A DNA stretch of 64,000 nucleotides from the IMG/VR virus record IMGVR_UViG_3300020048_000012, one strand, 5' to 3'. Positions 36,243 to 63,951 of this stretch are shown here, piece by piece. Below the pieces are notes generated by a model, which saw only the letters and a list, made by a program, of their open reading frames with translations, ran no database searches and was not told where the DNA came from. Within the stretch, counting starts at the first letter, position 1; the number at the start of each line of letters is the position of its first letter. This DNA is from a virus. A program made the position numbers and the translations under genes.

Positions 36243-36929
36243 ATGAATATCTATATGCCGTATGTATATAAAGTAACTCATACAACAACACAGCAATTCT
36301 ATATAGGAATGAGATCTGCTAATACTGTAGTTGCGGAAAATGATTTAGGCGTGCATTATTTTACTTCATCTAAATTTGTAAAGTCTAATTTTGATTGTTT
36401 TAAAATTAAAATTTTGGCATACTTTGTCGACCAAGAAGCGGCGTTCGAATTTGAAAATAATTTAATACGCGATAACTGGGGAAATTCTTTATTATTAAAT
36501 AAACACTTTCAGACATCTATGAGCACATTCTCTATGACTGGGTTTGCTCGTCCTGATCAATCTATTCGTAATAAACATACAAAAAGTAAACCAAAAGAGT
36601 CTAGAACATATGTATGTCCTAATTGCCAGATTGAACATATAAAGGTAGAGCATTCACATTTGATACGAAAGGACAAATATTGCAGTAAGAGATGCTCAAA
36701 TCAATCAAATGGCAAAAAGTCTATTCAGCACAATAAAGGCAAAAAGCTCAAAAACACTGGAAGAGTCGCGTGGAATAAAGGAATATCAAATCAACATAGC
36801 GCTGAAAATGGAAAAAGAAGTGCTGCGAAGCAATCTCAAACAATCACTGGAAGAAAAAGAAAATATAGAGATGATGGATCTTGGTTCTGGATTAAAGAGT
36901 CAGTTGATCCTGTTACGAAGCTCAACTGA
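36243..36929 (+). mobile_element. GIY-YIG homing endonuclease (Zn finger and AWNKG motifs) inserted antisense in the tmRNA locus
   Basis: PYVYKV...FYIGMRS, FENNLI, CPNC..CSKRC, AWNKG; flanked by two tmRNA tag ends. Confidence 0.85.
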
Positions 36930-37241
36930 CAAAGCTCTACTCTATTGCTACTTATGCAGCTTGAAGAGAATATGCATACTCATCGTTTGCTTTTACTTGA
37001 TTTGCTTGATTAACGGTCATCGCGTACCGTGTCGCCGTCTCTACTATTTAGCCCAATCGATCGCCATGTCAGCCCCATCAGAAGAATTCTTGGCGTATCT
37101 GTCTTTGTTACCGGAATTGCACCGTACAAGCGGGATCTGGGATGCCAAACCTGAGGGATTAACCTTCAGAATTCTTCTGGTGGAGCTGCCGGCTTCGAAG
37201 CCGGTTCTTGGACTCCTTCATATTGAAGGGATTACGACAAT
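36899..37241 (-). ncRNA. ssrA: Circularly permuted (two-piece) tmRNA, tag (A)NDEYAYSLQAA
   Basis: Acceptor piece ~37241-37178 ending CCGGC-TTCGAA-GCCGG-CAGCTCC-ACCA; 101-nt intervening segment closed by GAAGAATTCT/AGAATTCTTC; coding piece starts GGGGCTG at 37076; tag frame 36990-36952; P2 TTGGGCT/AGTCCAA. Confidence 0.92.
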
Positions 37242-37244
37242 ATT

Positions 37245-37454
37245 TTAATTATATCCCAAATCGATATTGTCTGAACAATCTAATTTTGGACATAAAAACC
37301 ACTTAGTTTTACGTAAGTATTCTAACATATCGCTCTTATTCATGGCCATTGCTTTTGATGACATCTCAACAAACACATCGTATCCATGTAATATTTCTTG
37401 CTCTGATTGCCCTTGGCACCATGCCTGATACATTGTTTTTGTGTAGATATACAT
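37245..37454 (-). CDS. Hypothetical protein
   Basis: 69 aa; TATAAATA at 37481-37488 upstream. Confidence 0.55.
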   Translation of the reverse strand: MYIYTKTMYQAWCQGQSEQEILHGYDVFVEMSSKAMAMNKSDMLEYLRKTKWFLCPKLDCSDNIDLGYN

Positions 37455-43685: not shown

Positions 43686-44577
43686 TGCTATGATTATAAT
43701 TATTTGAAACCAATTCATTAGTTGGCATATCATCTAAGTCTATCACCAGACATTTGAAATTCGCATAATCTGGTCGCTCATTTGGATATCCGCGTGGATT
43801 GCACGCGACTAATGTATCACCCATATAATACCAATGTTGATGATGCACGTGCCCGCATGTCCATAATTTGATCTGAGGTCGATCAAGGATGAATTCGCTT
43901 AAATCAGAATAGTACGCCCCATTCATTAAATACTCGTTTTTGTAATCTTCACTGATACTCAATACGCTTGGTGCATGGTGCCCAACGATCACAAACTTTT
44001 CATCATGTTTTTCAGACACAACTTGTTTGATATAGCCCAGACTCTTACGATGACGATGAACTGCGTGAGCTGCGCGAAGTTTAGTATAACCATGCTCGTC
44101 ATTGCGAATAATACGAAAGTCATTCATCATGTCGCCGACTGCATGCAGCGTCAACGGGTCGACCTTATTCATATCAGTCCAGAGCGTAGCTCCAACAAAC
44201 GTAACGTCATCTAACTTAAAGATTTCATCTTCAAGAAAATGAATGTTGTCATGACGAGCATATAATTCGCGTAGAATAGACAATGACTTAACCCACTTAC
44301 CATTATAGAATTCATGGTTGCCCGCGATAACGATCACGTGTGGAAATTCTGAACTAATTTGTTTCAAAAAGTCCATGTACTTAATCGCATTACGAGTGCG
44401 ATGCGACATCTTCTCCACTGCGCCTGATGCATACGGATTGAAGTCGGGAATCTCACGATCAAAATCATCGGCAATAAGAATATCGCCCGACAAAACCAGA
44501 ACGTCAGCCTCTTCAGTATTTTTAAGTTCTATCATCCCAAATTCAAGATGTAGGTCACTGCACACTGCGATTTTCAT
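43678..44577 (-). CDS. Calcineurin-like metallophosphoesterase
   Basis: SDLHLEF, LSGDI, IAGNHEFY, VGHHAP, GHVH, CNPRGY. Confidence 0.92.
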   Translation of the reverse strand: MKIAVCSDLHLEFGMIELKNTEEADVLVLSGDILIADDFDREIPDFNPYASGAVEKMSHRTRNAIKYMDFLKQISSEFPHVIVIAGNHEFYNGKWVKSLSILRELYARHDNIHFLEDEIFKLDDVTFVGATLWTDMNKVDPLTLHAVGDMMNDFRIIRNDEHGYTKLRAAHAVHRHRKSLGYIKQVVSEKHDEKFVIVGHHAPSVLSISEDYKNEYLMNGAYYSDLSEFILDRPQIKLWTCGHVHHQHWYYMGDTLVACNPRGYPNERPDYANFKCLVIDLDDMPTNELVSNNYNHSII

Positions 44578-45346: not shown

Positions 45347-45538
45347 TTAATCCTTTGCAATGTATTCCATGCGAACATCATACTTTTTATCTTCTTTTTC
45401 GACAACATCATACGCCACAATTAGAAAGCCATACTTTTTCATTTTGTAAGACTTTACCAATTGTAGCATTTGTGAATGATTCAAATCACTATAATCTCTT
45501 ACAGTGATATGTGGCTTAAGAAGAATTGGAATCTTCAT
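45347..45538 (-). CDS. Hypothetical protein
   Basis: 63 aa overlapping the ligase stop. Confidence 0.5.
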   Translation of the reverse strand: MKIPILLKPHITVRDYSDLNHSQMLQLVKSYKMKKYGFLIVAYDVVEKEDKKYDVRMEYIAKD

Positions 45539-46590
45539 TTTTCACCTTCAAGATAAAGATTAGAAACACACTTGAAAGAAATTCTTTTACCAGAATTGGC
45601 TTTGTATACAATACCTTCGCGTAGGCAGCCCACTTGTCCAAGAACAGATTGTCCATCTGCGTGGGCAAGAAGTTTATTAGCAGAGATGCCAGCCAAAACT
45701 CTTTCTTTATTGTACACAGGAGCATCGGTTAACTCAAGAAGTGCTGTCAATTCTCTACGATCAACTGGGGCATAATATTCAAACTTATCGATGTTAAACA
45801 CATCAAATACAAAGAACATGTGCTTTGTCAAATTGTAAATGTTGCCTTGGATGCCTGGGCCACACAGTTCACCTTGAATAGCGACATTTTTTCCAAGATA
45901 TGTCAACTTGGTTTTCAGATCAAGTTCAAGCGCCATCTTCCAGAATGTATTATCTTCAGATTCCTTCAGATCAAGATTCCGAGAACAAACGCCAAAGTCT
46001 CCATCACGGAAGTACACCGTCATAGAAGAACCTTCGCACTTTTCAGTTTCTTCCCAAGTTTCAGTATCGAAGTACTTTGCAACATCATCGTAGCAATTCT
46101 GTACACGTTCCTGATCAGTCTTGATGATGAAAGACGGAAAAGATCCGCGGGCATCAGCAGAAGTAAACTCCGGTGGTGCTTCCCACTTTACAATACCAAG
46201 AACTTCTGAAACATCATCTCCAACTTTATAATCTGGCATCAAATCTGCTGGTTCATCATACCCAGAGCCACAACCAAAAATAGACATCGGCAGAATCAAT
46301 CCTTGAGACAGAGCCTTACGAAGACGAATGGTACGAAGCTTTTCACCTTCGACACCGTTATACACCTTTGGAAAATGTCCAGCCTTAGTCAGGAATGGAG
46401 CAATCGTAGACGGGATGAAGGAATCAACTTCACAGAAGATGACTCGGTCACCGACTTGGTACTTACCGACTTGATCAACTACTCTCCACCCATTGATGCC
46501 ATACTGACAAATTTTGTCGGCACCTTCAATTGGGTGAACGCCATTTACTTCTTGAATAGAAGCCATTTTTCTCACATAAACATCATTCAT
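45535..46590 (-). CDS. RNA ligase, DRB0094 family
   Basis: RKMASIQ...HPIEGADKI, SQGLILP, FPSFIIKTDQERVQN, TEKCEGSS, IQGELCGPGIQGN, REGIVYK, SFKCVSN.YL. Confidence 0.92.
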   Translation of the reverse strand: MNDVYVRKMASIQEVNGVHPIEGADKICQYGINGWRVVDQVGKYQVGDRVIFCEVDSFIPSTIAPFLTKAGHFPKVYNGVEGEKLRTIRLRKALSQGLILPMSIFGCGSGYDEPADLMPDYKVGDDVSEVLGIVKWEAPPEFTSADARGSFPSFIIKTDQERVQNCYDDVAKYFDTETWEETEKCEGSSMTVYFRDGDFGVCSRNLDLKESEDNTFWKMALELDLKTKLTYLGKNVAIQGELCGPGIQGNIYNLTKHMFFVFDVFNIDKFEYYAPVDRRELTALLELTDAPVYNKERVLAGISANKLLAHADGQSVLGQVGCLREGIVYKANSGKRISFKCVSNLYLEGEK

Positions 46591-46786
46591 TTTCATCTCC
46601 TGCCATTTTATCTAATTTTAAAGACAATTCATAATCATATTCTGATCCATACCGACACTCTTGTTCGCGTGTCCAATTTCTTCGATCAGTGCAACTATGT
46701 TCTGTAAATCGTTCATATTGATTCATACACGATTCGCGAAGAGCTTCGGCGGCTTTTCTTAATATATCTATTTGATCTTCAGTCAT
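46583..46786 (-). CDS. Hypothetical protein, paralogue A
   Basis: MTEDQIDILRKAAEALRESC...QECRYGSEYDYELSLKLDKMA; paralogue at 47897-48115. Confidence 0.7.
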   Translation of the reverse strand: MTEDQIDILRKAAEALRESCMNQYERFTEHSCTDRRNWTREQECRYGSEYDYELSLKLDKMAGDENE

Positions 46787-54325: not shown

Positions 54326-54955
54326 TTATAAGTAATGACAGAATGTCGTCATGATATATTTAGGGTCGCTGATTGGTTTAAATCCACAATGTAGATATTG
54401 CCAAGTGCTCGGAAATATTAGCATACTTCCTTTCTTGGGTTGACAACTAAATCCCAATTTAGGAAATGCTGCGTCACCACCTTCAGGGATATCATTCAAA
54501 TAATATAATGCAGTGATGAATCGACGGGCCGATGCGTAATCACCGACATCAGTATGTAACCCAAATCCATCTTTGCCATTATTCATTGTCCGATTAATTC
54601 TAAAATGCTCAAATCCGTATTTTTCTGGAATTCTAGTTGGAGCATCCTGTGCATCAATATCAATCATATATTCGCCAATAGCTCGAACAGTGTAGTTTAC
54701 TACATGCGTGTGTAGATGTTTGAATAAAGGAATGTGTTGATTATCTGTGACATTCAATTGATCAAATCTAAAGTGGCCTTCGCCTTGCGCGTGAGTAACA
54801 TGTAATTGAGAATTTTTATCATACAATTGCAATAACTCATTGCATAAAGACGAAGGCAAAACATTTGGTTTATACGTGATATAGAACGCCAAATGCGTCT
54901 TATCAGGACGCCAAGTCATATAATCTTCTGGTGCAAGACGAATAATATCATTCAT
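54326..54955 (-). CDS. 2OG-Fe(II) oxygenase (prolyl-hydroxylase-like)
   Basis: FGLHTD, RFITALYYLND..EGG, PKKGSMLIFP..W.YLHCG, KYI. Confidence 0.88.
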   Translation of the reverse strand: MNDIIRLAPEDYMTWRPDKTHLAFYITYKPNVLPSSLCNELLQLYDKNSQLHVTHAQGEGHFRFDQLNVTDNQHIPLFKHLHTHVVNYTVRAIGEYMIDIDAQDAPTRIPEKYGFEHFRINRTMNNGKDGFGLHTDVGDYASARRFITALYYLNDIPEGGDAAFPKLGFSCQPKKGSMLIFPSTWQYLHCGFKPISDPKYIMTTFCHYL

Positions 54956-55638
54956 AATTTTAAATTCCTAGAATACGCTTCAATTTCGACTAATAAATCA
55001 TCTCTACAAATGTCTACATTTATAATTTTACCACTAATATTGTATTTTTGTAAAATATGTTTTACAACTTGATTTGATTCTTTATTCTTTACGTAGATAG
55101 TATACACTAAGTCTGAATTAGTTACACCCGATGTTGTCATCAATCTTCCGATATTATTAAGCGTTAAATCTATTTGACCAAACAAATCATCTTTATACCA
55201 TGTTTCACTGCCACGAATACTGGCTGTGCCAGATATCAATAAGTTATTGTCGTGTATTGCTGCTCGCGAAAATAATGGAACGCCATACACAGATGGATAA
55301 TTGAATGGATCTATTTGATTTGTATTGCTAAAGAAACGAGCTGGCGTTCGTGCTCGCGTATAGATGAGAGTGTATGTATCATCGAATGATCCTAAAGCAC
55401 ATGCAGTAGGATATTCCGTTACATTAAATTTAGTGAATATCTTTTTGCGAACTACATTGAATTTTGAGTATCGCTGAACGCCATCTTCATAACGAAGAAT
55501 ATCGGGTATAAAGTTTCTTATGTTGATAATGTATGGATATTCAGAATTGGGCGTAAACATTGCATTATACGCCCGTTCAATTTGTGATTCTATATCATAT
55601 CCACTTATTTTGATTTTAGTAGTTTGATAATTTTTCAT
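54952..55638 (-). CDS. FkbO/Hyg5/XanB2-like chorismatase (RidA/YjgF-fold)
   Basis: YPYIINIRNFIP, QRYSKFN..R, PTACALG, NQIDPFNYP..YG.PLFSRA, LISGTASIRG, DICRDDLLVEIEA; start moved to MKNYQ. Confidence 0.72.
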   Translation of the reverse strand: MKNYQTTKIKISGYDIESQIERAYNAMFTPNSEYPYIINIRNFIPDILRYEDGVQRYSKFNVVRKKIFTKFNVTEYPTACALGSFDDTYTLIYTRARTPARFFSNTNQIDPFNYPSVYGVPLFSRAAIHDNNLLISGTASIRGSETWYKDDLFGQIDLTLNNIGRLMTTSGVTNSDLVYTIYVKNKESNQVVKHILQKYNISGKIINVDICRDDLLVEIEAYSRNLKL

Positions 55639-55648
55639 AATATTAAAA

Positions 55649-55724
55649 TGGTGGTCGGAAGAACACTCGAAGTTCCACATTTATCCGTATGAAGGATACT
55701 CTCTGCCTCTTAAGATACCCGACC
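55649..55724 (-). tRNA. tRNA-Met/Ile2 (CAT)
   Basis: Cloverleaf; TATCC-TTCATAC-GGATA; CCA. Confidence 0.8.
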
Positions 55725-55727
55725 AAT

Positions 55728-55802
55728 TGGTAAGTCGAATAGGATTCGAACCTATATTAAAGCCTTATAATGGACTCTACTCTACCGTTGAGTTATCGAC
55801 TT
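55728..55802 (-). tRNA. tRNA-Ile (TAT), weak anticodon stem
   Basis: Good acceptor, D and T arms; loop ATTATAA; CCA. Confidence 0.65.
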
Positions 55803-55807
55803 ATTTA

Positions 55808-55951
55808 TTATAGTTTAGCACACTGTTCATACACTTTACCTTCACCTACACAAGGTATGAAGGCCCTCGAGGTAAATTCCGACTTTTCACATTTTCAGGT
55901 AATTACTCCTTACTTAGTGTTTCTCAGTTCGTGCAGTGCGCTAAACTATAA
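55808..55951 (-). ncRNA. Stem-closed ncRNA cassette A
   Basis: 18-nt terminal inverted repeat, 17/18 (G.U on minus strand). Confidence 0.5.
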
Positions 55952-56048
55952 CATATTAAACCATACTAACTGCCTAAGCCACAAGAGCTTAACCCTGCCC
56001 GTGATGTGAGCTACCTCATCTATCACGCACCCAGTGTGGTTTAATATG
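55952..56048 (-). ncRNA. Stem-closed ncRNA cassette B
   Basis: 16-nt terminal inverted repeat, 15/16. Confidence 0.5.
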
Positions 56049-56049
56049 C

Positions 56050-56145
56050 GAACTCATTGTAGGCAGGGGTCGAACCTGCACGAGGCGTCTATTTCCTCCG
56101 ACCCTATGAGAGGTCTATGACTACCAATTCCATCACTACGAGTTC
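56050..56145 (-). ncRNA. tRNA-like RNA with bulged acceptor stem, long variable arm and no CCA
   Basis: GGAATTGGTAG D-loop, GCAGG-TTCGACC-CCTGC T-arm, irregular TCTCATAG anticodon loop. Confidence 0.55.
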
Positions 56146-56194
56146 CTCAGGTGATCAGTCCCGAGAATGGTGAAGGGTAATTAATCCTTCGTTT

Positions 56195-56319
56195 ACCATA
56201 TTTAAGCGTCTTAATATCTCTCATAGTTGACGCTATAAGTTTTCGCAGGCCGTCAAACCCACCGAAATACTCTACGCGTTTCTTGCATAGAGTACCCCGT
56301 CAAGACACTTAAATATGGT
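56195..56319 (-). ncRNA. Stem-closed ncRNA cassette C
   Basis: 18-nt terminal inverted repeat, 17/18; arm includes the ACCA of tRNA-Val. Confidence 0.5.
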
Positions 56320-56390
56320 GATTGAGATAAGAATTGAACTTATGACCTCAACGATGTCAACGTTGCGTTCTACCACTGAACTACTCAACC
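56316..56390 (-). tRNA. tRNA-Val (GAC)
   Basis: Canonical cloverleaf; CAACG-TTGACAT-CGTTG; CCA. Confidence 0.92.
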
Positions 56391-56464
56391 AAGTTATGAT
56401 ACACGTATCACTTCAATACGTATCCATCGACTTCCGTCGTGCTTTCTACAATATCTTAAGCTAG

Positions 56465-56540
56465 TACCATATTAAAACACACACCTTGAACCTATGTTTC
56501 TCATCGTGTCCGCACAGGCGGGATGTGTTTTAATATGGTA
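56465..56540 (-). ncRNA. Stem-closed ncRNA cassette D
   Basis: Perfect 17-bp terminal inverted repeat; arm includes the ACCA of tRNA-Lys. Confidence 0.5.
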
Positions 56541-56609
56541 GGGCTGCTCGGTAACGATCCGAGTTTTACGAGTTAAAAGCTCGTTACTTCACCTTAAAGT
56601 TTCAACCCC
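56536..56609 (-). tRNA. tRNA-Lys (TTT)
   Basis: ACGAG-CTTTTAA-CTCGT; T-loop ATCGTTA; CCA. Confidence 0.85.
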
Positions 56610-56614
56610 ATGTA

Positions 56615-56689
56615 TGGTCCCGTGGCTCAGATTCAAACTGAGTTCTCTCGGCTTAAGAGGCCGGACTTCATCGTCAAAGTTTCCTCGGG
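56615..56689 (-). tRNA. tRNA-Lys (CTT)
   Basis: Loop CTCTTAA; one acceptor mismatch; CCA. Confidence 0.78.
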
Positions 56690-56801
56690 TGTTACGTATT
56701 GAATTATCTTTTACGTGCACACTTTAGACCATACATGGGATCTAAAGGGCACTATCGTTTAGCAGATGCTTTCATATAGTTTCCTTTTGTTTTAAAAATT
56801 A

Positions 56802-56830
56802 ATTATACTCTAATTACGTATTATTGTACA
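56802..56830 (-). promoter_or_regulatory. Early promoter TGTACA-17-TATAAT within tRNA cluster
   Basis: Exact family match. Confidence 0.85.
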
Positions 56831-56837
56831 CTAATTT

Positions 56838-56914
56838 TGGAAAGCCATGAGAGATTTGAACTCCCGACCTCTTCGTTCGAAGCGAAGTACTCTAGTCCAC
56901 TGAGTTAATGGCTC
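56838..56914 (-). tRNA. tRNA-Arg (TCG)
   Basis: CTTCG-CTTCGAA-CGAAG; CCA. Confidence 0.88.
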
Positions 56915-56920
56915 ATTGAT

Positions 56921-57124
56921 TTACGCGTAAGAATAAAACGTCTTAGACTTACCTTTAGAATTAGTTACAACGCTTGTGTTAATCGCGTATCCATGTTCAC
57001 GGATATCGCTAATGCGTGCGCGGACAGCATTTGGCGTAGTCTTAAGGCGTGATGCAAGTTGTGCGACGGTTTGTGTTTTGCCTTCAAGCACGAGAGTTTC
57101 AAAGATTTTGCGTTTAATCGACAT
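56921..57124 (-). CDS. Small winged-HTH DNA-binding protein
   Basis: TVAQLASRLKTTPNAVRARISDIREHGYAI; GAGGA RBS. Confidence 0.75.
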   Translation of the reverse strand: MSIKRKIFETLVLEGKTQTVAQLASRLKTTPNAVRARISDIREHGYAINTSVVTNSKGKSKTFYSYA

Positions 57125-57146
57125 AATATATCCTCTTATAATAAAA

Positions 57147-57220
57147 TGGAGTACTCATAGGGAATCGAACCCTATTACCCGGTTTTGCAGACCGTTGCCT
57201 ATCCAACTGGCTCTGAGTAC
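57147..57220 (-). tRNA. tRNA-Cys (GCA)
   Basis: Loop CTGCAAA, U73, CCA. Confidence 0.9.
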
Positions 57221-57224
57221 AAAA

Positions 57225-57299
57225 TGGTGCCGCTCCTAGGTTTCGATCCTAGTACCAAGGAATTATGAGTTCCCTGCTCTCCCATTGAGCTAGAGCGGC
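57225..57299 (-). tRNA. tRNA-Met/Ile2 (CAT)
   Basis: GGGAA-CTCATAA-TTCCT; CCA. Confidence 0.9.
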
Positions 57300-57307
57300 A
57301 AATAAAA

Positions 57308-57624
57308 TTAACACTTCCACTGGACCAGCCTGGCGTACAGACTGCGGTGGCTCCACCGACAGAAACGTTTATCAGGATTTGAAGAACTTTGATTGCCTCG
57401 AGTCTTTCGACTTGTCAATGGCTAATCGTTGTGCTTTCATGATTTAAACGTTTATCTTTGACACTTAAACTTTGAACTTTAATATTTAAACGTTGAGGTT
57501 CCATATTGGTAGGCATTTCTGCCCGATAGTTCGTTGATTTAAAATATCAATGATTTGTCCATATTTTGATACTGAGGACAATAAGTAAGGCCGTTCTAAT
57601 CTGTTCGGTCCAGCAAAGTGTTAA
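57308..57624 (-). ncRNA. ~315-nt stem-closed RNA with 7-nt repeat core, directly after coiled-coil gene
   Basis: Terminal helix TTAACACTT..CTGGACC/GGTCCAG..AAGTGTTAA; eight heptamers at 57495-57440. Confidence 0.6.
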
Positions 57625-57625
57625 C

Positions 57626-58264
57626 TTAAAAACTGATAGTTGTCTTGGCGTTAACCTCAGACAAAGTGAAATCCAATTCAGTATCGACAAGAGAAATTTC
57701 TTCCTCAAGTGCAGCAATCTTCTCAACAATGTTGACTGGGTCAATCAATGCAGCTTCCTTCATAGCCTTCTGAGGCTTAGCAATTAGGTCATATGAACCT
57801 GCGTCCACCTTGGATTTATCGCTACCATAAATGGTCTTCAAGTTAGAGTCAATGTCTTGCTCCAACTTGGCGTTCAATTGAGACACAAGGCCTTGAGCAC
57901 GAGTTTGTTGAAGACGCATAACATTCAACAGATTACGCTTGCTGTCGATCGAACGCTTCATTTCGATAGCTTCTGCGACAGTCACTTCAATCGAACCAAT
58001 CTTCACTGTCGTGACAGCATTGGACTTAACGATCGCAGCTTTGATTGCGGCACGTTCCTTAAACAGCGAATTCACAGTATCAAAAGAACTCTGGATCTTA
58101 GCCTTAGCCTGATCGACGGACAGTCCTGCCGTATCATTGACCTTCATCTGAGCGTCTTTACCAACACTGACAGTCACAAACATACCGGCACTCGTCGCAC
58201 GAGCAATACGGTCATCGAGACGCTTCAATTCAGCCAAAGCACGAGTTACAGACATTGTGTTCAT
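57626..58264 (-). CDS. Coiled-coil protein (DIP1984-like family)
   Basis: MSVTRALAELKRLDDRI, VTVAEAIEMK, LIDP..I..KI..LEEEI...D..LSEVNAKTTI; start set by AAGGA RBS. Confidence 0.75.
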   Translation of the reverse strand: MNTMSVTRALAELKRLDDRIARATSAGMFVTVSVGKDAQMKVNDTAGLSVDQAKAKIQSSFDTVNSLFKERAAIKAAIVKSNAVTTVKIGSIEVTVAEAIEMKRSIDSKRNLLNVMRLQQTRAQGLVSQLNAKLEQDIDSNLKTIYGSDKSKVDAGSYDLIAKPQKAMKEAALIDPVNIVEKIAALEEEISLVDTELDFTLSEVNAKTTISF

Positions 58265-58296
58265 TTTCATTTCCTTCATAGTTAAACGTTGATTAT

Positions 58297-58375
58297 TGGT
58301 ACCCAAGAGGAGACTCGAACTCCTAACTTTTCTTCGTTCTTAGCGAAGCGCCTTTTCCAATTTGGCAACAAGGGC
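58297..58375 (-). tRNA. tRNA-Leu (AAG)-like, two acceptor mismatches
   Basis: CTTCG-CTAAGAA-CGAAG; Leu-type D loop; CCA. Confidence 0.55.
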
Positions 58376-58381
58376 ATTATA

Positions 58382-58456
58382 TGGTACCTCTGCCAGGAAT
58401 TAAACCTGGATCTGAACCTTCGCAGGGTTCTGTGATATTCATTTCACTACAGAGAT
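58382..58456 (-). tRNA. tRNA-Arg (GCG)
   Basis: GAACC-CTGCGAA-GGTTC; CCA. Confidence 0.78.
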
Positions 58457-58462
58457 AAATTC

Positions 58463-58610
58463 ATTATTGTTAAGAGTTATCATGCAAATTTAGGAGTGAG
58501 GTGCTTCCTCTCCAAAGCCGATGCAGTTATATTAGGATCAGTCGCCGGCCGCTTTGACCCGAATAGATTACACGTCTGTAATCGATACCTTGATAACGCT
58601 TAACAATAAT
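58463..58610 (-). ncRNA. Stem-closed ncRNA cassette E
   Basis: 20-nt terminal inverted repeat, 19/20. Confidence 0.5.
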
Positions 58611-58681
58611 AAAACACATTAGGAGTCCTATGGAGGGGAGATTATGACCTTCGGAACAACCCTAAGAACTAACGTGTTTTA
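58610..58681 (-). ncRNA. Stem-closed ncRNA cassette F
   Basis: 13-nt terminal inverted repeat, 12/13 (G.U on minus strand). Confidence 0.45.
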
Positions 58682-58822
58682 ATAAATCAGAGGCTGGTCT
58701 AAGATGTCACAGAATCGAACTGTAAAACCATCATCTTAAAGAGCGCGGAGTTTCTAGCTACTCATTGCTCCACTCGGCCGAGTTAACCCGTTACATGCGC
58801 TAACACATAACACCTCTAAACT

Positions 58823-58900
58823 TGGTGTGAGCATCCGGATTCGAACCGGAGTATCTGAGTTGGCAACCCAGGACATTAGACCAAACTATGCTATGCCCAC
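58823..58900 (-). tRNA. tRNA-Gly (GCC)
   Basis: CTGGG-TTGCCAA-CTCAG; A73; CCA. Confidence 0.85.
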
Positions 58901-58907
58901 GAAAATA

Positions 58908-58982
58908 TGGTGCTCCCATAAGGACTTGCGCCCTACTCTGAGGCTTACAAAACCCCTGCATCGCTATCTATGCTTTGAGAGC
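58908..58982 (-). tRNA. tRNA-Thr (TGT)
   Basis: GGGGT-TTTGTAA-GCCTC; T-loop CGCAAGT; CCA. Confidence 0.78.
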
Positions 58983-59109
58983 AGATCCAACTGTGAACTT
59001 ATGCTAAGCCGTTGGCGCTTTCGCAGCCAGATCAAGGTTCTGGAAGACCTAAATTGGTGGGATCAGTTTCACAGTCGTCCCGGCGTGTAGGATATACTAC
59101 AACTATATC

Positions 59110-59180
59110 TGGATGCGGGTGAAGGGCACGATCCTTCTGGGCCGAGCTTATGAGACTGGCCGATCACCTGAATACCCGCA
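59110..59180 (-). tRNA. tRNA-Met (CAT)-like with reduced D-arm
   Basis: Perfect 7-bp acceptor, CTCATAA loop, 71 nt, CCA. Confidence 0.5.
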
Positions 59181-59236
59181 ATATTTTGTTTATTGATTAA
59201 TTATACAACAATTTCTATTTAATAGAAAATCTAATT

Positions 59237-59311
59237 TGGCTCCCCAGGAAAGGTTCGAACTTCCGACCAAGTGATTAACAGTCACCTACTCTACCACTGA
59301 GCTACTAGGGA
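59237..59311 (-). tRNA. tRNA-Asn (GTT)
   Basis: Canonical; G73; CCA. Confidence 0.93.
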
Positions 59312-59413
59312 ATAATAAAAATGTAGTGTAACTGGAGTCTTAATTACCAGTATAGCGCAGGCGCACGCGGGAGACTAATCATCTCAGGCAAGTGATAACG
59401 CCTACTACAAAAT

Positions 59414-59499
59414 TGGCTCCACGGGTAGGGATCGAACCTACGATTGTCAAAAGACGACTGGTTAACAGCCAGCTGCATTACCTCTCTGCGCACCGTGGA
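59414..59499 (-). tRNA. tRNA-Asn (GTT) with long variable arm
   Basis: GCTGG-CTGTTAA-CCAGT plus GTC-TTTT-GAC extra arm; G73; CCA. Confidence 0.8.
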
Positions 59500-59587
59500 A
59501 TAAAATTCATTGAATCGATTCGGAATTTAACCGCTCTGTTTCCTCTTTCGAGTGAAGGCTCGTTCGACACCTCCCAGATCACTTATT

Positions 59588-59661
59588 TGGTTGGTCTGTT
59601 ACGAATTGAACGTAAATCGGTCGCTTATAAGGCAACTGCTCTCCCATTGAGCTACAGTCCA
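59588..59661 (-). tRNA. tRNA-Ile (TAT)
   Basis: GTTGC-CTTATAA-GCGAC; CCA. Confidence 0.8.
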
Positions 59662-59669
59662 ATAAATTT

Positions 59670-59744
59670 TGGTACCTGGTGTTGGTTACGCTCCAACTAC
59701 AAACGCCTTATCAAGACGCTACCTCGCTATTCGGTCTACCAGGC
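59670..59744 (-). tRNA. tRNA-Ile (GAT)
   Basis: GCGTC-TTGATAA-GGCGT; T-loop AGCGTAA; CCA. Confidence 0.82.
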
Positions 59745-59769
59745 ATGCGGACCCAGATTTATGTCATTA

Positions 59770-60010
59770 GGCCCATTAGACAGAGGTCTCTTGAGTTTAG
59801 ATAGTCAAGCTATCAAAGCGAGTTGGAGACACTGCTTATACATTTGAGTTCCCGTTTGTCATTGTGGCACGGGTCGCCTTGACGTCCTCAAAAAGGTTCT
59901 CAGAAACTGTGTTAACAGTCTTGTCTCGTAAGAAGGAGATCTTGCGTGTTCGTGTGAAAAAGCCCAATCAGTTGGCACTACTTGCGACTCGACTTCTACG
60001 TCTATCTGAA
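59770..60010 (-). ncRNA. Candidate RNase P-like RNA, possibly circularly permuted
   Basis: P4-like AAG-T-CGAGT / ACTCG-CTT helix with bulged U; P5-like GTCGC/GCGAC; P15-like CCCGT/ACGGG followed by GAACTCAAATG. Confidence 0.5.
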
Positions 60011-60013
60011 ATT

Positions 60014-60090
60014 TGGAGCGTCCACCCGGATTCGAACCGGGACCATCAGCTTGGAAGGCTGTCATGCTAGCCGTTAAACACCATGAACGC
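60014..60090 (-). tRNA. tRNA-Gly (TCC)
   Basis: Loop CTTCCAA; U73; CCA. Confidence 0.92.
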
Positions 60091-60096
60091 AAAACT

Positions 60097-60222
60097 TGGT
60101 GTGTAGAGTAGGTCTCGAAGCCTACAAATAGTACCATACTCTGAGTCGTTAAACTCATATCAGAATCGAACTGAATGACCAGGCTCATCACCCGGCGCGT
60201 TTACCAATTACGCCATCTACAC
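60097..60222 (-). ncRNA. 126-nt giant tRNA-like RNA (Leu-type frame, multi-hairpin variable region)
   Basis: 7-bp acceptor plus ACCA; D and T arms intact; loop TGATGAG; three extra hairpins, one a second TTCGATT T-arm. Confidence 0.7.
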
Positions 60223-60230
60223 ATAAAAAC

Positions 60231-60305
60231 TGGTATCCCGTATCGGTTATGCTCCGATCTCAGTAGGGTGAAGGCCTACTTGCCACACTAGCTGCATCAC
60301 GGGAT
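60231..60305 (-). tRNA. tRNA-Glu (TTC)-like with C33
   Basis: GTAGG-CCTTCAC-CCTAC; T-loop AGCATAA; CCA. Confidence 0.65.
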
Positions 60306-60314
60306 ATAAAAACT

Positions 60315-60389
60315 TGGCGATCTTAGCCGGTAACGATCCGGCTCTTCCTCTTAGACAGAGAGGTGTGCGTCCATGAACACTTTAAGACC
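60315..60389 (-). tRNA. tRNA-Asp (GTC)
   Basis: CCTCT-CTGTCTA-AGAGG; G73; CCA. Confidence 0.88.
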
Positions 60390-60394
60390 TAAAA

Positions 60395-60745
60395 TTCAAG
60401 TCACAACCATTGGGACTCATACCCATTCTATAAAGTGTACCAGTGTGACCAGCGTACACGAAGTTTACTCATGGGCATTTACTTTCCCATTAATTCTTAA
60501 ATTAGGTCGGGAATACACGGCGTTAGAAATAAAGTGGCTCTCGGTTTCGAATCAAAAGCGTATGAATATAACTTCTGTCCCTAGGCAGTCTTTCCGCCGA
60601 CAATGTGTTTCAAACCCCTACTGGACCGACTTACTCTCGCATCGTCAATGATCTGTGGCTTAGTACGTCCAGCATTATTGAAGACCTCCCAGTCTCGGAA
60701 GGCTCGGCACCCATCTACTCATCCTACTAAACATTGTCTTAGTAA
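60395..60745 (-). ncRNA. Candidate large structured RNA
   Basis: No credible CDS; helices CTGGAC/GTCCAG, GTCGG/CCGAC, GGCGG/CTGCC, GTGTAC/GTACAC. Confidence 0.35.
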
Positions 60746-60747
60746 CT

Positions 60748-60824
60748 TGGCTCCCGTGGCACTCATCGCATAGTGCGTTATCTAACCATTGGCTAAGGTC
60801 CGCGCAGACCCGCTAAACACGGAA
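60748..60824 (-). ncRNA. tRNA-like RNA with CCA and non-canonical anticodon arm
   Basis: Acceptor TTCCGTG/CACGGGA-G-CCA; GCACT/AGTGC and GGTC/GACC arms; anticodon unreadable. Confidence 0.5.
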
Positions 60825-60831
60825 ATAAAAT

Positions 60832-60917
60832 TGGTGGAGTTTGTCACAGGCTTTCACTGTGATTTGCTCAGCTAAGTTATAGCTGCTTTCGTCCTATATG
60901 TTACGTATTCAAACCCC
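60832..60917 (-). ncRNA. tRNA-like RNA with Ala-type acceptor (G3.U70), 8-bp acceptor, 6-bp T-stem, AAC loop
   Basis: GGGGTTTG/CAAACTCC-A-CCA; CAGCT-ATAACTT-AGCTG. Confidence 0.6.
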
Positions 60918-60983
60918 ATAAATTGGTGGACCCCTGTTTCTATGCCTGGGCCCATTGATAGAGTATCTACTATCAGCATGTTT

Positions 60984-61059
60984 TGGTGGAGGTGAGGAGG
61001 ATCGAACTCCTATCTAAGCATTGCAAGTGCTCCGTGTAACCCATTATCACTACACCCCC
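60984..61059 (-). tRNA. tRNA-Ala (TGC)
   Basis: G3.U70; loop CTTGCAA; CCA. Confidence 0.92.
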
Positions 61060-61065
61060 AAAAAC

Positions 61066-61137
61066 TGGTGGACCTATGGGGAATCGAACCCCAAGCATGG
61101 CATTGCAAGTGCCTTTCCCGTCCCATACGGTAAGCCC
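61066..61137 (-). tRNA. tRNA-Ala (TGC), compact D-arm
   Basis: G3.U70; loop CTTGCAA; 72 nt; CCA. Confidence 0.75.
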
Positions 61138-61253
61138 AAAATAAAAGTAACGGTATATGGATTCTTTCCCGTCAGTTGCAGAATTGAACTTTCGAACAAT
61201 CGCCACATTCCAAGTACTCCGTGAAAGGGAGGATGTATCTGCATCTTATAAAC

Positions 61254-61329
61254 TGGTCAGTGATGTTGGTCCCGCCCCAACGGCCTCTCGCTTCCAAAAC
61301 GAGTACTCTACTAGCTGAGCTAATCACTG
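61254..61329 (-). tRNA. tRNA-Pro (TGG)
   Basis: Loop TTTGGAA; T-loop GGCGGGA; CCA. Confidence 0.82.
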
Positions 61330-61434
61330 TAAATTCTTGCTGTGGTAGCTAATACCTCAAGCACAAGCAGTGCATCCCAGTTACGCTGGTTCGTTTATGC
61401 AAGGGCGAGTTTGCTTACGCCTTAGAGTGCTCAT

Positions 61435-61510
61435 TGGTCTCCATACGAGGATTTGAACCTCGGCTTCTTGGTCCCAAACCAAGTGCGCTACCAGGCTACG
61501 CAATACGGAG
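61435..61510 (-). tRNA. tRNA-Pro (GGG)
   Basis: CTTGG-TTTGGGA-CCAAG; CCA. Confidence 0.9.
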
Positions 61511-61516
61511 AAAATC

Positions 61517-61602
61517 TGGTGGATGCGGTAGGATTCGAACCTACAAGTCCGTGAGGAGCCGGATTTACAGTCCGGGGAGCCAACCAATTGCTCAACACAT
61601 CC
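61517..61602 (-). tRNA. tRNA-Tyr (GTA)
   Basis: CCGGA-CTGTAAA-TCCGG; long variable arm; CCA. Confidence 0.92.
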
Positions 61603-61609
61603 AAAATTA

Positions 61610-61721
61610 ATTATACATAAACATACTCGCATCTGCCTTTGGAGCCGCGTGTTCCTCCCCTTGTTTTACCACAGGATCCTGTGGAGGAGTGTGCACATTT
61701 ACACCAATGTTTATGTATAAT
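61610..61721 (-). ncRNA. Stem-closed ncRNA cassette G (112 nt)
   Basis: Perfect 15-bp terminal inverted repeat. Confidence 0.5.
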
Positions 61722-61831
61722 CATATTGAAACATATTCCAGGGGGATTCGCACTTGCCTTTTCTTCAGTAAACACTGACCCTGCATCTTAAATCAATAAG
61801 AGGAACCTAACAAAATATGTTTCAATATGAT
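61720..61831 (-). ncRNA. Stem-closed ncRNA cassette H (112 nt)
   Basis: Perfect 18-bp terminal inverted repeat. Confidence 0.5.
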
Positions 61832-61924
61832 CCCGAGGGTATCTCGGTAAATTGAGTAGCATTCCAGCGACAGTCCGATTACCAGTCGGATGCCTGCATC
61901 TCTACACAATCATTATCATATTCA

Positions 61925-62295
61925 AATGCTCCGGGAATACTGAAGGGCATTCTTAGCATCTCTCTTTCCACAGTATAAGACGAATGGAAGATTGCTTAAC
62001 TCACCCCATGTTCAAACCAAAACACTTGAATATGATTCCTGAAGCAGTGAACCAGCACACGTGTCCGGCGCTTACTTCAGGATATCATGAAAAATCATCA
62101 AATTTTGAAAGAACAAATCGGGATATCTTACGATACATTACATGCAACAAGGATCGACCAAGCCGCAAACTTTCGTTCACCTCATCAAACATCATTTCTG
62201 TGTTCAACTACCTTAGTGCGCCACTTAGTGGACTACACTCAGAACCCGATTAAAATTTTAAAGAATCTTTCTTGAAGTCCCGATCAACTTCTAAG
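61925..62295 (-). ncRNA. Candidate large structured RNA directly after a promoter
   Basis: AATCGGG/CCCGATT domain closure, TCCTGAAG/CTTCAGGA long hairpin, TTCAA/TTGAA hairpin; no credible CDS. Confidence 0.4.
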
Positions 62296-62300
62296 ATTTT

Positions 62301-62329
62301 ATTATACCACATTTACTAATTAAAGTAAA
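62301..62329 (-). promoter_or_regulatory. Early promoter GTTTACT-17-TATAAT (T4-like -35)
   Basis: Matches T4 early GTTTAC box. Confidence 0.8.
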
Positions 62330-62495
62330 CAAGTATTTTAAAAATTGTGATACGCTTGGTGTGAAACAAGTCGTCTTTATGTGCGTTCTTTTTTGGCTAT
62401 ACCTGCGAGTTTCACGCAGCGTCAATAAACACATAAATTTCACAATTTTTAAAGAACTTCCAAGCAAACTCGATGGTTTGTTTGTTTATGGATTT

Positions 62496-62524
62496 ATTAT
62501 ACCACGAAGTCTATTTAATGTACA
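62496..62524 (-). promoter_or_regulatory. Early promoter TGTACA-17-TATAAT
   Basis: Exact family match. Confidence 0.85.
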
Positions 62525-62655
62525 CCGTTTTATGCATTATTTTTAGTGCTTCAGGTGACTTCAAGAGACTTACGTTGGTATACTTACACTTGCCCGATGA
62601 ACAATGACGTACGTACACTTGATGCACATAAGTTGTTGATTTATATAGGCCTAAA

Positions 62656-62730
62656 TGGCATCCCGACTAGGACTCGAACCTAGACATGCAGTTTTGGAGA
62701 CTGCAGTGCTGCCAATTACACTATCGAGAT
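62656..62730 (-). tRNA. tRNA-Trp (CCA)
   Basis: GCAGT-CTCCAAA-ACTGC; G73; CCA. Confidence 0.92.
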
Positions 62731-62746
62731 ATGAAAATACAAAGGG

Positions 62747-62818
62747 GTGACCTATGGGGAATGCTCCCATTCTATCGCTTTCACAGAGCGAGGTGCGAAA
62801 CTTTTACACTAAGGTCAC
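62747..62818 (-). tRNA. tRNA-His (GTG), no encoded CCA, inside an extended terminal stem
   Basis: TCGCT-CTGTGAA-AGCGA; C73; flanks AATACAAAGG/CCTTTGTATT pair. Confidence 0.6.
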
Positions 62819-62836
62819 ACCTTTGTATTCTAAACT

Positions 62837-62913
62837 TGGTGCGTCTGGAGGGATTTGAACCCCCAACAGTTCGGGTAGAAGCCGAGTACTCTATCCAGTT
62901 GAGTTACAGACGC
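62837..62913 (-). tRNA. tRNA-Arg (TCT)
   Basis: Loop CTTCTAC; CCA. Confidence 0.92.
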
Positions 62914-62920
62914 AAATTCT

Positions 62921-62997
62921 TGGTGCCCGAGGTCAGATTCGAACCGACACGATTTTGATTTTGAATCAAACGCCTCTACCAATTGGGCTACACGGGC
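62921..62997 (-). tRNA. tRNA-Leu (CAA), short variable loop
   Basis: TTTGA-TTCAAAA-TCAAA; A73; CCA. Confidence 0.85.
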
Positions 62998-63006
62998 AAA
63001 TATTCT

Positions 63007-63083
63007 TGGTGCGAATGGCGGGACTCGAACCCGCAGATTATGGGTTTTAAGCCCACTGCCTATACCAATTCGGCTACATTCGC
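63007..63083 (-). tRNA. tRNA-Leu (TAA), short variable loop
   Basis: GTGGG-CTTAAAA-CCCAT; CCA. Confidence 0.88.
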
Positions 63084-63097
63084 ATACTAACTAATTC

Positions 63098-63185
63098 TGG
63101 CGGAGCATGTAGGAATCGAACCTACTCACCACTTACGCAGTGACAGATTAGCAATCTGTTGCCTTAACCGGTCGGCCAATGCTCC
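63098..63185 (-). tRNA. tRNA-Ser (GCT)
   Basis: ACAGA-TTGCTAA-TCTGT; long variable arm; G73; CCA. Confidence 0.93.
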
Positions 63186-63193
63186 TTAAAATT

Positions 63194-63268
63194 TGGTGCT
63201 TCGTGACAGATTCGAACTGCCGACCCTCGCCGTGTAAAAGCGTAGCTCTACCACTGAGCTAACGAAGC
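63194..63268 (-). tRNA. tRNA-Val (TAC)
   Basis: Loop TTTACAC; CCA. Confidence 0.9.
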
Positions 63269-63269
63269 A

Positions 63270-63503
63270 TTAACCATTTCGTCTACACTTATAGACATAT
63301 TCTAATCCATCTGGCAATACGCCATCATTGATACTATCAACACCAGATTTTCCAACTTGATTTGGATCTTCGCATACTGTTGTAACAAATGACATACCCA
63401 ATTTACGCATTCCTTCTGACACTTCTAACGCTCTAAGTAGAGTCGCTGTGTCTACAGCGTGTGACCAGTTTGTGACTGGATCAGTATAATACACTTTAAA
63501 CAT
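63270..63503 (-). CDS. Conserved hypothetical protein within tRNA cluster
   Basis: 77 aa; MFKVYYTDP...FVTTVCEDPNQVGK.GVD.I.DG.LPDG..Y. Confidence 0.75.
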   Translation of the reverse strand: MFKVYYTDPVTNWSHAVDTATLLRALEVSEGMRKLGMSFVTTVCEDPNQVGKSGVDSINDGVLPDGLEYVYKCRRNG

Positions 63504-63518
63504 AATTCACTTTATTTA

Positions 63519-63595
63519 TGGTGGGGATGGAGAGACTCGAACTCTCAGCTTACGGCTTCTAAGACCGCTGCGTCTACCAATTGCGCCACATCCCC
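63519..63595 (-). tRNA. tRNA-Leu (TAG), short variable loop
   Basis: GCGGT-CTTAGAA-GCCGT; CCA. Confidence 0.9.
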
Positions 63596-63604
63596 GAAAT
63601 ATAT

Positions 63605-63678
63605 TGGTCAGTGATGGAGGTACCGCCCCTCCGCTTCAAGTTTCCAAAACTCGTAGACTACTTTTATCTCAATCACTG
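63605..63678 (-). tRNA. tRNA-Pro (TGG), second copy
   Basis: Loop TTTGGAA; T-loop GGCGGTA; CCA. Confidence 0.75.
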
Positions 63679-63685
63679 ATTAATC

Positions 63686-63759
63686 TGGTGCCCCTTCAAG
63701 GAATTGAACCTCATTCTGATGCTTACAAGGCAACTGTAATACCAATATACTAAAAGGGC
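63686..63759 (-). tRNA. tRNA-Thr (TGT), second copy
   Basis: Loop CTTGTAA; CCA. Confidence 0.82.
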
Positions 63760-63763
63760 TTCT

Positions 63764-63834
63764 AATATTTGAGCATACTAACTGGATCCATCTCGCACTA
63801 GGTGCATCTCGGGCGATCAATATGCTCAAATATT
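63764..63834 (-). ncRNA. Stem-closed ncRNA cassette J
   Basis: Perfect 14-bp terminal inverted repeat. Confidence 0.45.
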
Positions 63835-63873
63835 GGAGCTGCTACGGAGAATCGAACTCCGCTTGTCGGGATG
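63834..63873 (-). pseudogene. 3' half of a tRNA (starts in the anticodon loop)
   Basis: CATCCCGAC-AAG-CGGAG-TTCGATT-CTCCG-TAGCAGC-T-CCA; 5' half absent. Confidence 0.65.
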
Positions 63874-63876
63874 ATC

Positions 63877-63951
63877 TGGAGTCGCATACGGGAATCGAAC
63901 CCGTCTCTACAGCATGAAAGGCTGTTGATCTAACCGATAATCTAATGCGAC
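63877..63951 (-). tRNA. tRNA-Glu (TTC)
   Basis: ACAGC-CTTTCAT-GCTGT; CCA. Confidence 0.88.

Follow-up and report, generated by a model that had tools for sequence, protein, structure and literature searches.

The tRNA array of a large uncultured myovirus is interleaved with structured RNA cassettes that form a single family, most of them closed by a recognisable variant of a common terminal stem (the stalk), which characteristically begins by pairing with the CCA of the preceding tRNA, and each enclosing a different interior (the cargo). The array lies in a 64,000-nt stretch of DNA (IMG/VR virus record IMGVR_UViG_3300020048_000012; the whole stretch is referred to as the window) from a phage distantly related to T4, and comprises 31 tRNAs predicted by ARAGORN, all on the minus strand at 55649..63951, with cassettes between them; it continues beyond the window end. 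An initial annotation of the window had described at least nine unrelated non-coding RNA cassettes, here A to I, closed by AT-rich inverted repeats. Judged by their stems, these are divergent local members of a family that is widespread in hundreds of environmental (uncultured) phage contigs and apparently undescribed, and the stalk is its selected, constant part.

All nine inverted repeats were found, with ends within 1-5 nt of those first given, as were four further stem-closed elements (56600-56746, 61915-62036, 62331-62459 and 62734-62831, the last enclosing tRNA-His), making at least 13 in total. On the minus strand the terminal stem closes every element, and all are more stable than dinucleotide shuffles, with z scores from -3.3 (F) to -8.7 (C). 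A scan of the 64-kb window for stems of at least 17 pairs with at most one mismatch and a span of 45-230 nt placed 12 of the 17 strong stems in the 8.3-kb tRNA zone, a density of 1.45 per kb against 0.09 per kb elsewhere. The stems are 13-25 bp long; as had been described, their arms are AT-rich (9-41% GC over the outer 16 bp) and the interiors GC-richer (40-55%), the latter also relative to the genome. Packing is equally tight on re-examination, A and B abutting and E and F, and G and H, overlapping by 1-2 nt. The stems of C and D do include the ACCA of the upstream tRNA (tRNA-Val(GAC) and tRNA-Lys(UUU), respectively), and cassette I likewise has its start on a CCA belonging to a tRNA-Glu-like 3′ half; A, E and G, each preceded by another cassette, do not start in this way. 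The shared 112-nt length of G and H, to which attention had been drawn, has no significance, because lengths in the family span 59-191 nt.

The cassettes had been called unrelated, which is correct for the interiors but not for the stems, most of which are recognisable variants of one stalk. Its consensus is CCAUAUUGAAACACAUU / AGUGUGUUUCAAUAUGG, the first bases being the CCA of the preceding tRNA, and the arms have in common NCAUAUUNAAAC.../...GUUUNAAUAUGN. The 5′ arms of B, C, D, H and the 61915 element share NCAUAUUNAAAC (by eye, CAUAUUNAA), and those of A, E, F, G and I are recognisable derivatives that have diverged with compensation. When the consensus was applied at up to five mismatches per arm, three window cassettes passed; the 56600 and 62331 elements have other stems. 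Written on the tRNA strand, the consensus reads R73-C-C-A/UAUUGAAACACAUUR, cargo, YAGUGUGUUUCAAUA/UGG(UA), with positions beyond the searched motif conserved too; it was obtained independently of orientation, and the U.G pair at position 16 was already present in that motif set.

The mismatches in the arms had been reported to favour G.U pairs on the transcribed strand, and the bias proved stronger than claimed. Stems of the window clade contain 41 G.U and 7 A.C pairs under a scoring rule that favours G.U somewhat, and a hand count of internal mismatches flanked by Watson-Crick pairs in this clade gave 18 G.U and 4 A.C. Across the 362 cassettes of the relaxed scan described below there are 5804 Watson-Crick, 502 G.U and 93 A.C pairs, with 58 of the A.C at position 8. 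Position 16 is U.G in 259 of the 362, position 14 is C-G in 271, U-A in 42 and U.G in 43, and most positions covary; fully rewritten yet paired stalks also occur, for example CCAUGUGUCAGCACAUUA in locus L149. Because the G.U pairs are strand-specific and the stems covary, the cassettes form an RNA helix on the tRNA strand, and the proposal that they are one family of RNA-level modules, with a common closing stem on that strand and differing interiors, was borne out.

The distribution of the stalk was determined by scanning IMG/VR for CATATTNAAAC followed, after a gap of 40-70 or 70-100 nt, by GTTTNAATATG, which gave at least 244 matches. Among the matches listed (244), 229 belong to loci that also contain tRNAs, 201 have a tRNA no more than 300 nt away, and 169 are unique exact-motif cassettes. 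A relaxed scan yielded 362 unique cassettes of 59-191 nt, up to 11 per locus and nearly all in phage tRNA arrays, with a modal stalk length of 18-20 bp. Protein identity between the carrier phages and the window phage is only 30-57%. In the carriers, the genes next to the array are of ordinary T4 type (among them RegA, RNase H, clamp loader, dCMP deaminase and Hsp20), and in a complete 172-kb genome near-perfect long stems (at most one mismatch, few G.U) are confined to the tRNA array. More distant protein relatives from metagenomes, with 36-59% identity on a 226-aa open reading frame (ORF) of the array, have almost no stalk motifs, and only one of them (L013) carries them. No cultured phage record that was checked carries the stalk family, literature searches of one library by topic and by motif letters found no paper on stalk cassettes, and Rfam 15, searched at gathering and permissive thresholds with the window, 12 related loci and a homologue of cassette E, returned only tRNA, transfer-messenger RNA (tmRNA) and one group I intron among the listed matches.

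Anchoring on CCA is a property of the family. An ARAGORN tRNA ends exactly on the stalk's CCA in 95 of the 169 exact-motif cassettes, a C occupies position -1 in 151 and a purine position -2 in 157; at the far end, the stalk's second-last G is G1 of the next tRNA in 29.

A comparable motif, with G fixed at the variable position and a gap of 25-55 nt, was searched for in prokaryote genomes (596 Gb, 185,579 species genomes), giving 11 isolated matches, with no tRNA in the 7 loci checked. In several Desulfobulbales-type genomes among these loci (L309-L319) a 48-nt intergenic palindrome, TTCATATTGAAAC...GTTTCAATATGAA (for example L318, 1872-1919), lies away from tRNAs; it looks operator-like and unrelated to the phage stalk. 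The same scan bears on the idea that the cassettes mimic CRISPR repeats or CRISPR RNAs (crRNAs), as RNA anti-CRISPRs or solitary repeat units. Constant ends do flank hypervariable interiors, the 5′ arm holds AUUGAAAC, the 8-nt handle common in crRNAs, and the 3′ arm opens with GUUUCAAU, both 8-mers matching common repeat termini. However, no array with these extended repeat ends was found in the 185,579 species genomes, where all 11 matches are single and outside arrays; the G at position 8, inside AUUGAAAC, forms a G-C pair in just 54% of cassettes and is missing from most of those in the window; the interiors are about 30-170 nt long, structured and conserved; and the two ends are paired to one another as well as to CCA. 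Mimicry of this kind is extremely unlikely.

Gain, loss and exchange of cassettes were followed in three relatives fetched through the 226-aa array ORF. The closest, L001 (95% identity on this ORF), has C, D, G, H, the 61915 and 62331 elements and the tRNA-His stem, and is without A, B, E, F and I; its array, aligned with that of the window, is a patchwork in which some blocks are 98% and others 75-92% identical. For E and F, the two phages differ by one clean block of three modules, about 360 nt in all, which lies between tRNA-Gly and tRNA-Arg and shows no target duplication. L002 and L003 (67% identity) have cassettes of their own, with arms such as AUCAUUUUAAAAC, plus long stems round tRNA-Asn and tRNA-Pro. 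The clustering of interiors that had been suggested as a check was run and placed the 169 exact-motif cassettes in 119 clusters and the 160 tRNA-linked ones in 109, of which 21 occur behind more than one tRNA type; in L119 a duplicated cargo stands behind different tRNAs within one array. The suggestion that the cassettes are modular, exchangeable cargo is upheld by this sharing and by the differences between the window and L001.

Inverted ends round a variable cargo, presence or absence between close relatives, duplicated cargo behind different tRNAs as in the L119 array, and cargo exchange would also suit mobile or recombination elements acting at the DNA level, whether like miniature inverted-repeat transposable elements (MITEs) or like attC sites, with functional terminal repeats and only incidental RNA folding. 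DNA symmetry does not, however, predict the large excess of G.U over A.C on the tRNA strand, and the cassettes have a fixed orientation relative to the tRNAs, with ends anchored on CCA. No target-site duplication is present at the junctions of the E/F block, the attC R′′/R′ consensus does not fit, no transposase or integrase is among the common neighbours, and ordinary homologous recombination at conserved stalks would suffice. We consider DNA elements improbable; the MITE, attC and crRNA-mimic readings were set aside, each failing a defining feature.

Some cargos (those of E, the 56600 element, F and G) are conserved structured RNAs, and many others turn over fast and are swapped between stalks. 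Cassette E has at least 14 homologous loci at 72-86% identity. Of 44 predicted pairs in this family, 32 show compensatory changes, and the family is 94.7% paired compared with 71.7% in shuffles (0 of 500) and 33-42% when the partners were slid; that E is a new structured RNA of about 150 nt is well supported. A 111-nt cargo family likewise shows five fully compensated pairs among four sequences. In about 10% of exact-motif cargos (18 of 169) a T-arm lies just before the 3′ arm, so that the stalk acts as a very long acceptor stem. The cargos as ordinary tRNAs were rejected, with an ARAGORN tRNA in only 2 of 362 cassettes.

Many cargos, including those of B and I, have no detectable relatives. 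Together with the extreme diversity of the cargos and with the stalk as the sole constant part, this is what would be expected if the hairpins were mere insulators or spacers that let the tRNAs fold independently, the excised piece being waste and the cargo neutral filler that folds. Against this, several cargos are 72-92% conserved between phages whose proteins are 30-57% identical and show strong compensatory covariation, and the interiors are GC-richer than the genome. We therefore regard neutral filler as quite unlikely.

Placement of the stalk is strongly biased by tRNA type. In loci L085-L308 the share of genes directly followed by a stalk is 47% for Lys(UUU), 32% for Glu(UUC), 25% for Leu(UAG), 24% for Gln(UUG) and 18% for Leu(UAA), compared with 0-3% for most other tRNAs; no stalk stands behind any of the 176 Met, 92 Asp, 90 Ser(GCU), 73 Cys and 70 His genes, and essentially none behind tRNA-Trp. 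The window is in keeping, with D behind Lys(UUU) and I behind the Glu-like 3′ half. On the downstream side, the tRNAs that most often adjoin a stalk are Ala(UGC), Ser(UGA), Tyr and Met. The 39 Lys-linked cassettes represent 33 cargo clusters and 35 distinct upstream tRNA sequences with varied neighbours, so the bias is not inherited synteny alone.

The preferred tRNAs, of the Lys-UUU, Glu-UUC, Gln-UUG and Leu-UAR type, are common targets of anticodon nucleases, and decoys for such nucleases had been one of the functions proposed. In its simplest form this was not borne out, the anticodon-loop 7-mer of the upstream tRNA being found in the cargo in 2 of 160 cases with about 0.9 expected. A broader alternative is that the stalk is a specific handle for a phage or host protein or ribonucleoprotein factor acting on these tRNAs, which would time or boost their maturation or couple them to repair or to evasion of tRNA-targeting defences, with the cargo as effector or modulator. 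The tRNA-type bias beyond simple synteny, the identity of the preferred tRNAs as nuclease targets, the conserved stalk sequence, with its fixed non-Watson-Crick positions 8 and 16, and the presence of a phage RNA ligase are all compatible with a handle. The array neighbours, all ordinary T4-type genes, include no candidate binding protein, however, and the stalks of the window clade have drifted with compensation, pointing to a helix rather than to strict sequence constraint; the negative mimicry test also counts against a handle, and the bias could reflect demand for A-ending codons in AT-rich phages. On balance such a handle is unlikely.

We put at slightly better than even the chance that the stalk is instead a punctuation and clamp element in the minus-strand tRNA precursor, from which it would release folded cargo hairpins; release by a single processing route, as first proposed for these RNAs, is an inference. 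The cassettes would be co-transcribed with the tRNAs, each as an AU-rich stalk of 17-24 bp with a variable folded cargo. In the family, the stalk's opening pairs involve the CCA of the tRNA before it, or of some other RNA ending in CCA, and its final bases often extend into G1 of the next tRNA. The stalk would in this way set a double-stranded, structure-defined junction between CCA and the following U and another at the 5′ side of the next RNA, by which host endonucleases could resolve a precursor almost free of single-stranded spacer. Two cuts would be needed, one between CCA and U and the other at the stalk's 3′ base. Wherever a tRNA follows, the downstream cut could be made by RNase P; for the second, upstream cut RNase III is a first guess, and other candidates are RNase P, if it treats the hairpin as a tRNA-like helix, RNase Z/BN, and RNase E, whose preference is matched by CCAU/AUU. 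The excised hairpin would keep paired, exonuclease-protected ends and may be stable, its cargo riding in the stalk scaffold and, in some cassettes, presumably having a function of its own.

Features of the stalk and junction are consistent with RNase III. The modal stalk length of 18-20 bp agrees with an RNase III substrate stem of about two helical turns, and RNase III double cuts leave 2-nt overhangs with, as an in vivo rule, a G-C pair between the cuts (PMC6212723). Were the upstream cut to fall after A76, the pair lying between the two staggered cuts would be C75:G, in agreement with this rule. As for RNase E, the E. coli enzyme removes a hairpin directly after CCA in proK, proL and proM (PMC5291269).

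Several observations weigh against punctuation and clamping. Where the last pairs of the stalk already include the start of the next tRNA (29 cassettes), that tRNA would be damaged by a staggered RNase III cut yielding CCA. A gene for RNase III was looked for and not found in five related phage records, of which two are complete genomes; any such enzyme would therefore have to come from the host. A plain processing site needs neither a conserved structured cargo of 30-130 nt nor a sequence-conserved stalk; since the stalk sequence is conserved across phages at 30-57% protein identity and the cargo is structured, a sequence-specific binder may exist. Generic punctuation also leaves the Lys/Glu/Gln/Leu(UAR) bias unexplained, and this bias, with the conservation of the stalk sequence, leaves room for a specific binding factor. 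In a more ambitious form of this idea, which we think rather unlikely, the stalk would be a sequence-recognised RNA expression scaffold with which a large clade of environmental T4-like phages displays and exchanges more than 100 structured small RNAs. It would be placed by preference at the 3′ ends of tRNA-Lys, Glu, Gln and Leu(UAR), and a specific factor would be coupled to release of either the cargo or the tRNA, for host takeover or counter-defence. If true, it would be an RNA-level analogue of a gene-cassette system.

The window itself contains a precedent for the layout of the cassettes. Its tmRNA gene is circularly permuted, in two pieces (36927-37287, minus strand), with an ACCA, then a stem-closed insert, then the 5′ end of the other piece. 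The acceptor piece ends in ...CAGCUCCACCA, directly followed by a 10-bp stem, GAAGAAUUCU / AGAAUUCUUC, that encloses an intervening segment of about 90 nt before UGAUGGGGCUG of the coding piece; a permuted tmRNA is also present in L089, a distant cassette carrier. As in permuted tmRNAs in general (RF04321, RF01850), the segment (about 37080-37180) starts directly after ACCA, has its own closing stem, ends at a tRNA-like 5′ end and must be excised. It differs from the cassettes in being a single case in one gene, with a stem unrelated to the stalk consensus and no repeated scaffold with swappable cargo.

Other known systems resemble the cassettes in part. The initial annotation had likened them to the stable RNAs of T4, and the analogy holds for location: species 1 and 2 (rnaC and rnaD) are also small non-tRNA RNAs of unknown function that abut tRNA in a T4-type tRNA cluster, and rnaC has a T-arm, like about a tenth of the cassette cargos. 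It does not extend to structure or sequence. Both RNAs are without a long closing stalk, rnaD folds no better than shuffles (z -0.8), and neither gave a blastn match at E <= 0.01 to the window or the fetched loci. The stalks cleaved by RNase III in 16S/23S ribosomal RNA precursors and at T7 R1.1-type sites are similar in that the two flanks of a cargo RNA pair into a helix some 20 bp long, within a polycistronic transcript of stable RNAs or of a phage; the 18-20 bp of the cassettes and their G-C pair at the expected place are compatible with this. The cassette stalk, a candidate cleavage site, differs in being sequence-conserved, anchored on CCA and reused for more than 100 cargos.

Units in which tRNA-processing enzymes release a hairpin joined to a tRNA-like structure are familiar from the tRNA-microRNA units of murine gammaherpesvirus 68 and from MALAT1 mascRNA; these are eukaryotic, use RNase Z and P and have neither CCA pairing nor a constant stalk. 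In E. coli proK, proL and proM a tRNA CCA is followed by a stem-loop whose endonucleolytic removal gives the mature 3′ end; there the hairpin is a terminator and lies beside the CCA rather than pairing with it (PMC5291269). In the cassettes the junction is inside the helix, and cassette-cassette junctions are without any single strand. Hairpin-directed excision from a polycistronic stable-RNA transcript, the probable mechanism here, is of a known kind; a CCA-anchored constant stalk with swappable cargo is new.

Annotations of phage tRNA arrays usually list the tRNAs and leave the spacers between them unexplained; here the spacers are an organised, conserved system in which one RNA stalk serves many cargos on the CCA ends of particular tRNAs. 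Should the stalk prove to be a processing signal, it would show how a polycistronic tRNA precursor lacking spacers is resolved and would offer a natural scaffold for the expression of stable small RNAs. Should the cargos act on the host, phages would hold in them an untouched pool of RNAs for regulation or anti-defence. Cassette E is ready for experiment, and the question of the stable RNAs in the T4 tRNA cluster gains a much larger comparative data set.

The individual cassettes, all on the minus strand, are as follows. Cassette A (55806..55953; z -4.5) has a stalk of 20-23 bp that departs from the consensus (UUAUAGUUUAGCG...). It adjoins B directly, is followed after 3 nt by tRNA-Ile(UAU) and is absent from L001; it has one IMG/VR homologue, in L140 (72% over 151 nt). 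Cassette B (55951..56049; z -5.7), with stalk GCAUAUUAAACCA and also absent from L001, follows an odd tRNA-like gene (56055-56142, minus strand) that ARAGORN reports as 'tRNA-???' with a two-base anticodon and whose 3′ end, ...CAAUGAGUUCG / ...CUACAAUGAGUUCG, is without CCA. This 3′ end recurs directly before a consensus cassette in L085, which makes the gene a conserved odd tRNA-like stalk partner. Cassette C (56195..56319; z -8.7) has a stalk of 21-24 bp running from the ACCA of tRNA-Val(GAC) and a four-way-junction interior, and cassette D (56465..56540; z -6.1) a near-consensus stalk, ACCAUAUUAAAACACAU, from the ACCA of tRNA-Lys(UUU) and a 42-nt cargo; both are present in L001.

The 56600 element (56600..56746; z -5.9) consists of a structured leader of about 70 nt and a tRNA-Lys(CUU)-like cloverleaf, the leader pairing over 17-20 bp with the ACCA of the cloverleaf and its trailer, and has homologues in at least 16 IMG/VR loci. 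The cloverleaf (about 56615-56690, minus strand) has CUCUUAA as its anticodon loop, carries a T-arm and an encoded ACCA, and contains a single A.A mismatch in its acceptor stem; both ARAGORN and the Rfam tRNA model missed it.

Cassettes E and F abut and are both absent from L001. E (58460..58613; z -5.1) has a stalk of 23-25 bp round a conserved five-helix RNA of about 110 nt, and F (58607..58684) a stalk of 13-16 bp (UAUUAAAACACG), the weakest fold (z -3.3) and 5-7 IMG/VR homologues. With F and E, a CCA-ending tRNA-like module (58685..58822) that has a T-arm minihelix (...ACAGUUCGAUUCUGU...AGACCA) and a weak fold (z -1.9) makes up the three-module block missing from L001. Cassette G (61608..61723; z -4.6) has a stalk of 15-17 bp and 3 IMG/VR homologues, and an A-to-G change in L001 turns one of its pairs into G.U on the tRNA strand. 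Cassette H (61717..61834; z -4.2), with 18 perfect pairs (up to 24) and the near-consensus stalk AUCAUAUUGAAACAUAUU, is identical in L001. The extra cassette at 61915..62036 (z -5.1) has a 20-bp stalk, AUCAUAUUCAAGUG..., and the element at 62331..62459 (z -4.0), between two promoter-like sites, a stalk of another type (AAGUUCUUUAAAAAUUGUGA); both are present in L001. Cassette I (63761..63837; z -5.6), absent from L001, has a stalk of 21-24 bp (CCAAUAUUUGAGCAUA) that starts on the CCA of the tRNA-Glu-like 3′ half at 63834-63876.

In the tRNA-His(GUG) element (62734..62831; z -5.8) the acceptor stem is lengthened by about 11 bp through leader-trailer pairing. Such an extension, of 10-16 extra bp and varying sequence, was seen in 3 of 8 phages compared (including G005, 44167-44270, and L116, about 1817-1920), by which it was rejected as a universal feature; it may bear on the keeping of the G-1 residue of this tRNA.

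Three extended -10 promoter-like sites (TGnTATAAT) lie inside the array on the tRNA strand (62524-62496, 62329-62301 and 56830-56802, minus strand). An element of about 55 nt around 62485-62540 has four further copies in L001, and this repeated promoter-like element can be likened to the promoter/stem-loop shuffling modules of T4-type phages. The inter-tRNA stretches at 59662-60013, 60091-60314, 60390-60983 and 61832-62300 (minus strand) contain no tRNA, Rfam match or convincing ORF and are 92-98% conserved in L001; such long tRNA-free stretches probably hold more structured RNAs without stalk closure. The 226-aa ORF within the array (57626-58306, minus strand) encodes a helical protein of PHROG 1491, labelled 'tail fiber protein', with no Pfam match, and is very widespread, with 371 confirmed metagenome matches; it is followed at 57305-57627 by a non-coding stretch of about 320 nt whose ends pair over 12 bp.

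Searches of the GenBank phage collection with megablast and blastn gave tRNA matches only, with no cultured DNA relative of the region, and the closest topoisomerase II among GenBank phages is 45% identical. Among the gene products of the window are baseplate and tail proteins, the two subunits of topoisomerase II, gp32, PhoH and the RNA ligase (45535-46596, minus strand), which combines PF09414 with a PHA02142 OB-fold domain. The array's downstream end (54326-55680, minus strand) has genes for a chorismatase FkbO/Hyg5-like and RidA-like protein and for a 2OG-Fe(II) (2-oxoglutarate- and iron-dependent) oxygenase.

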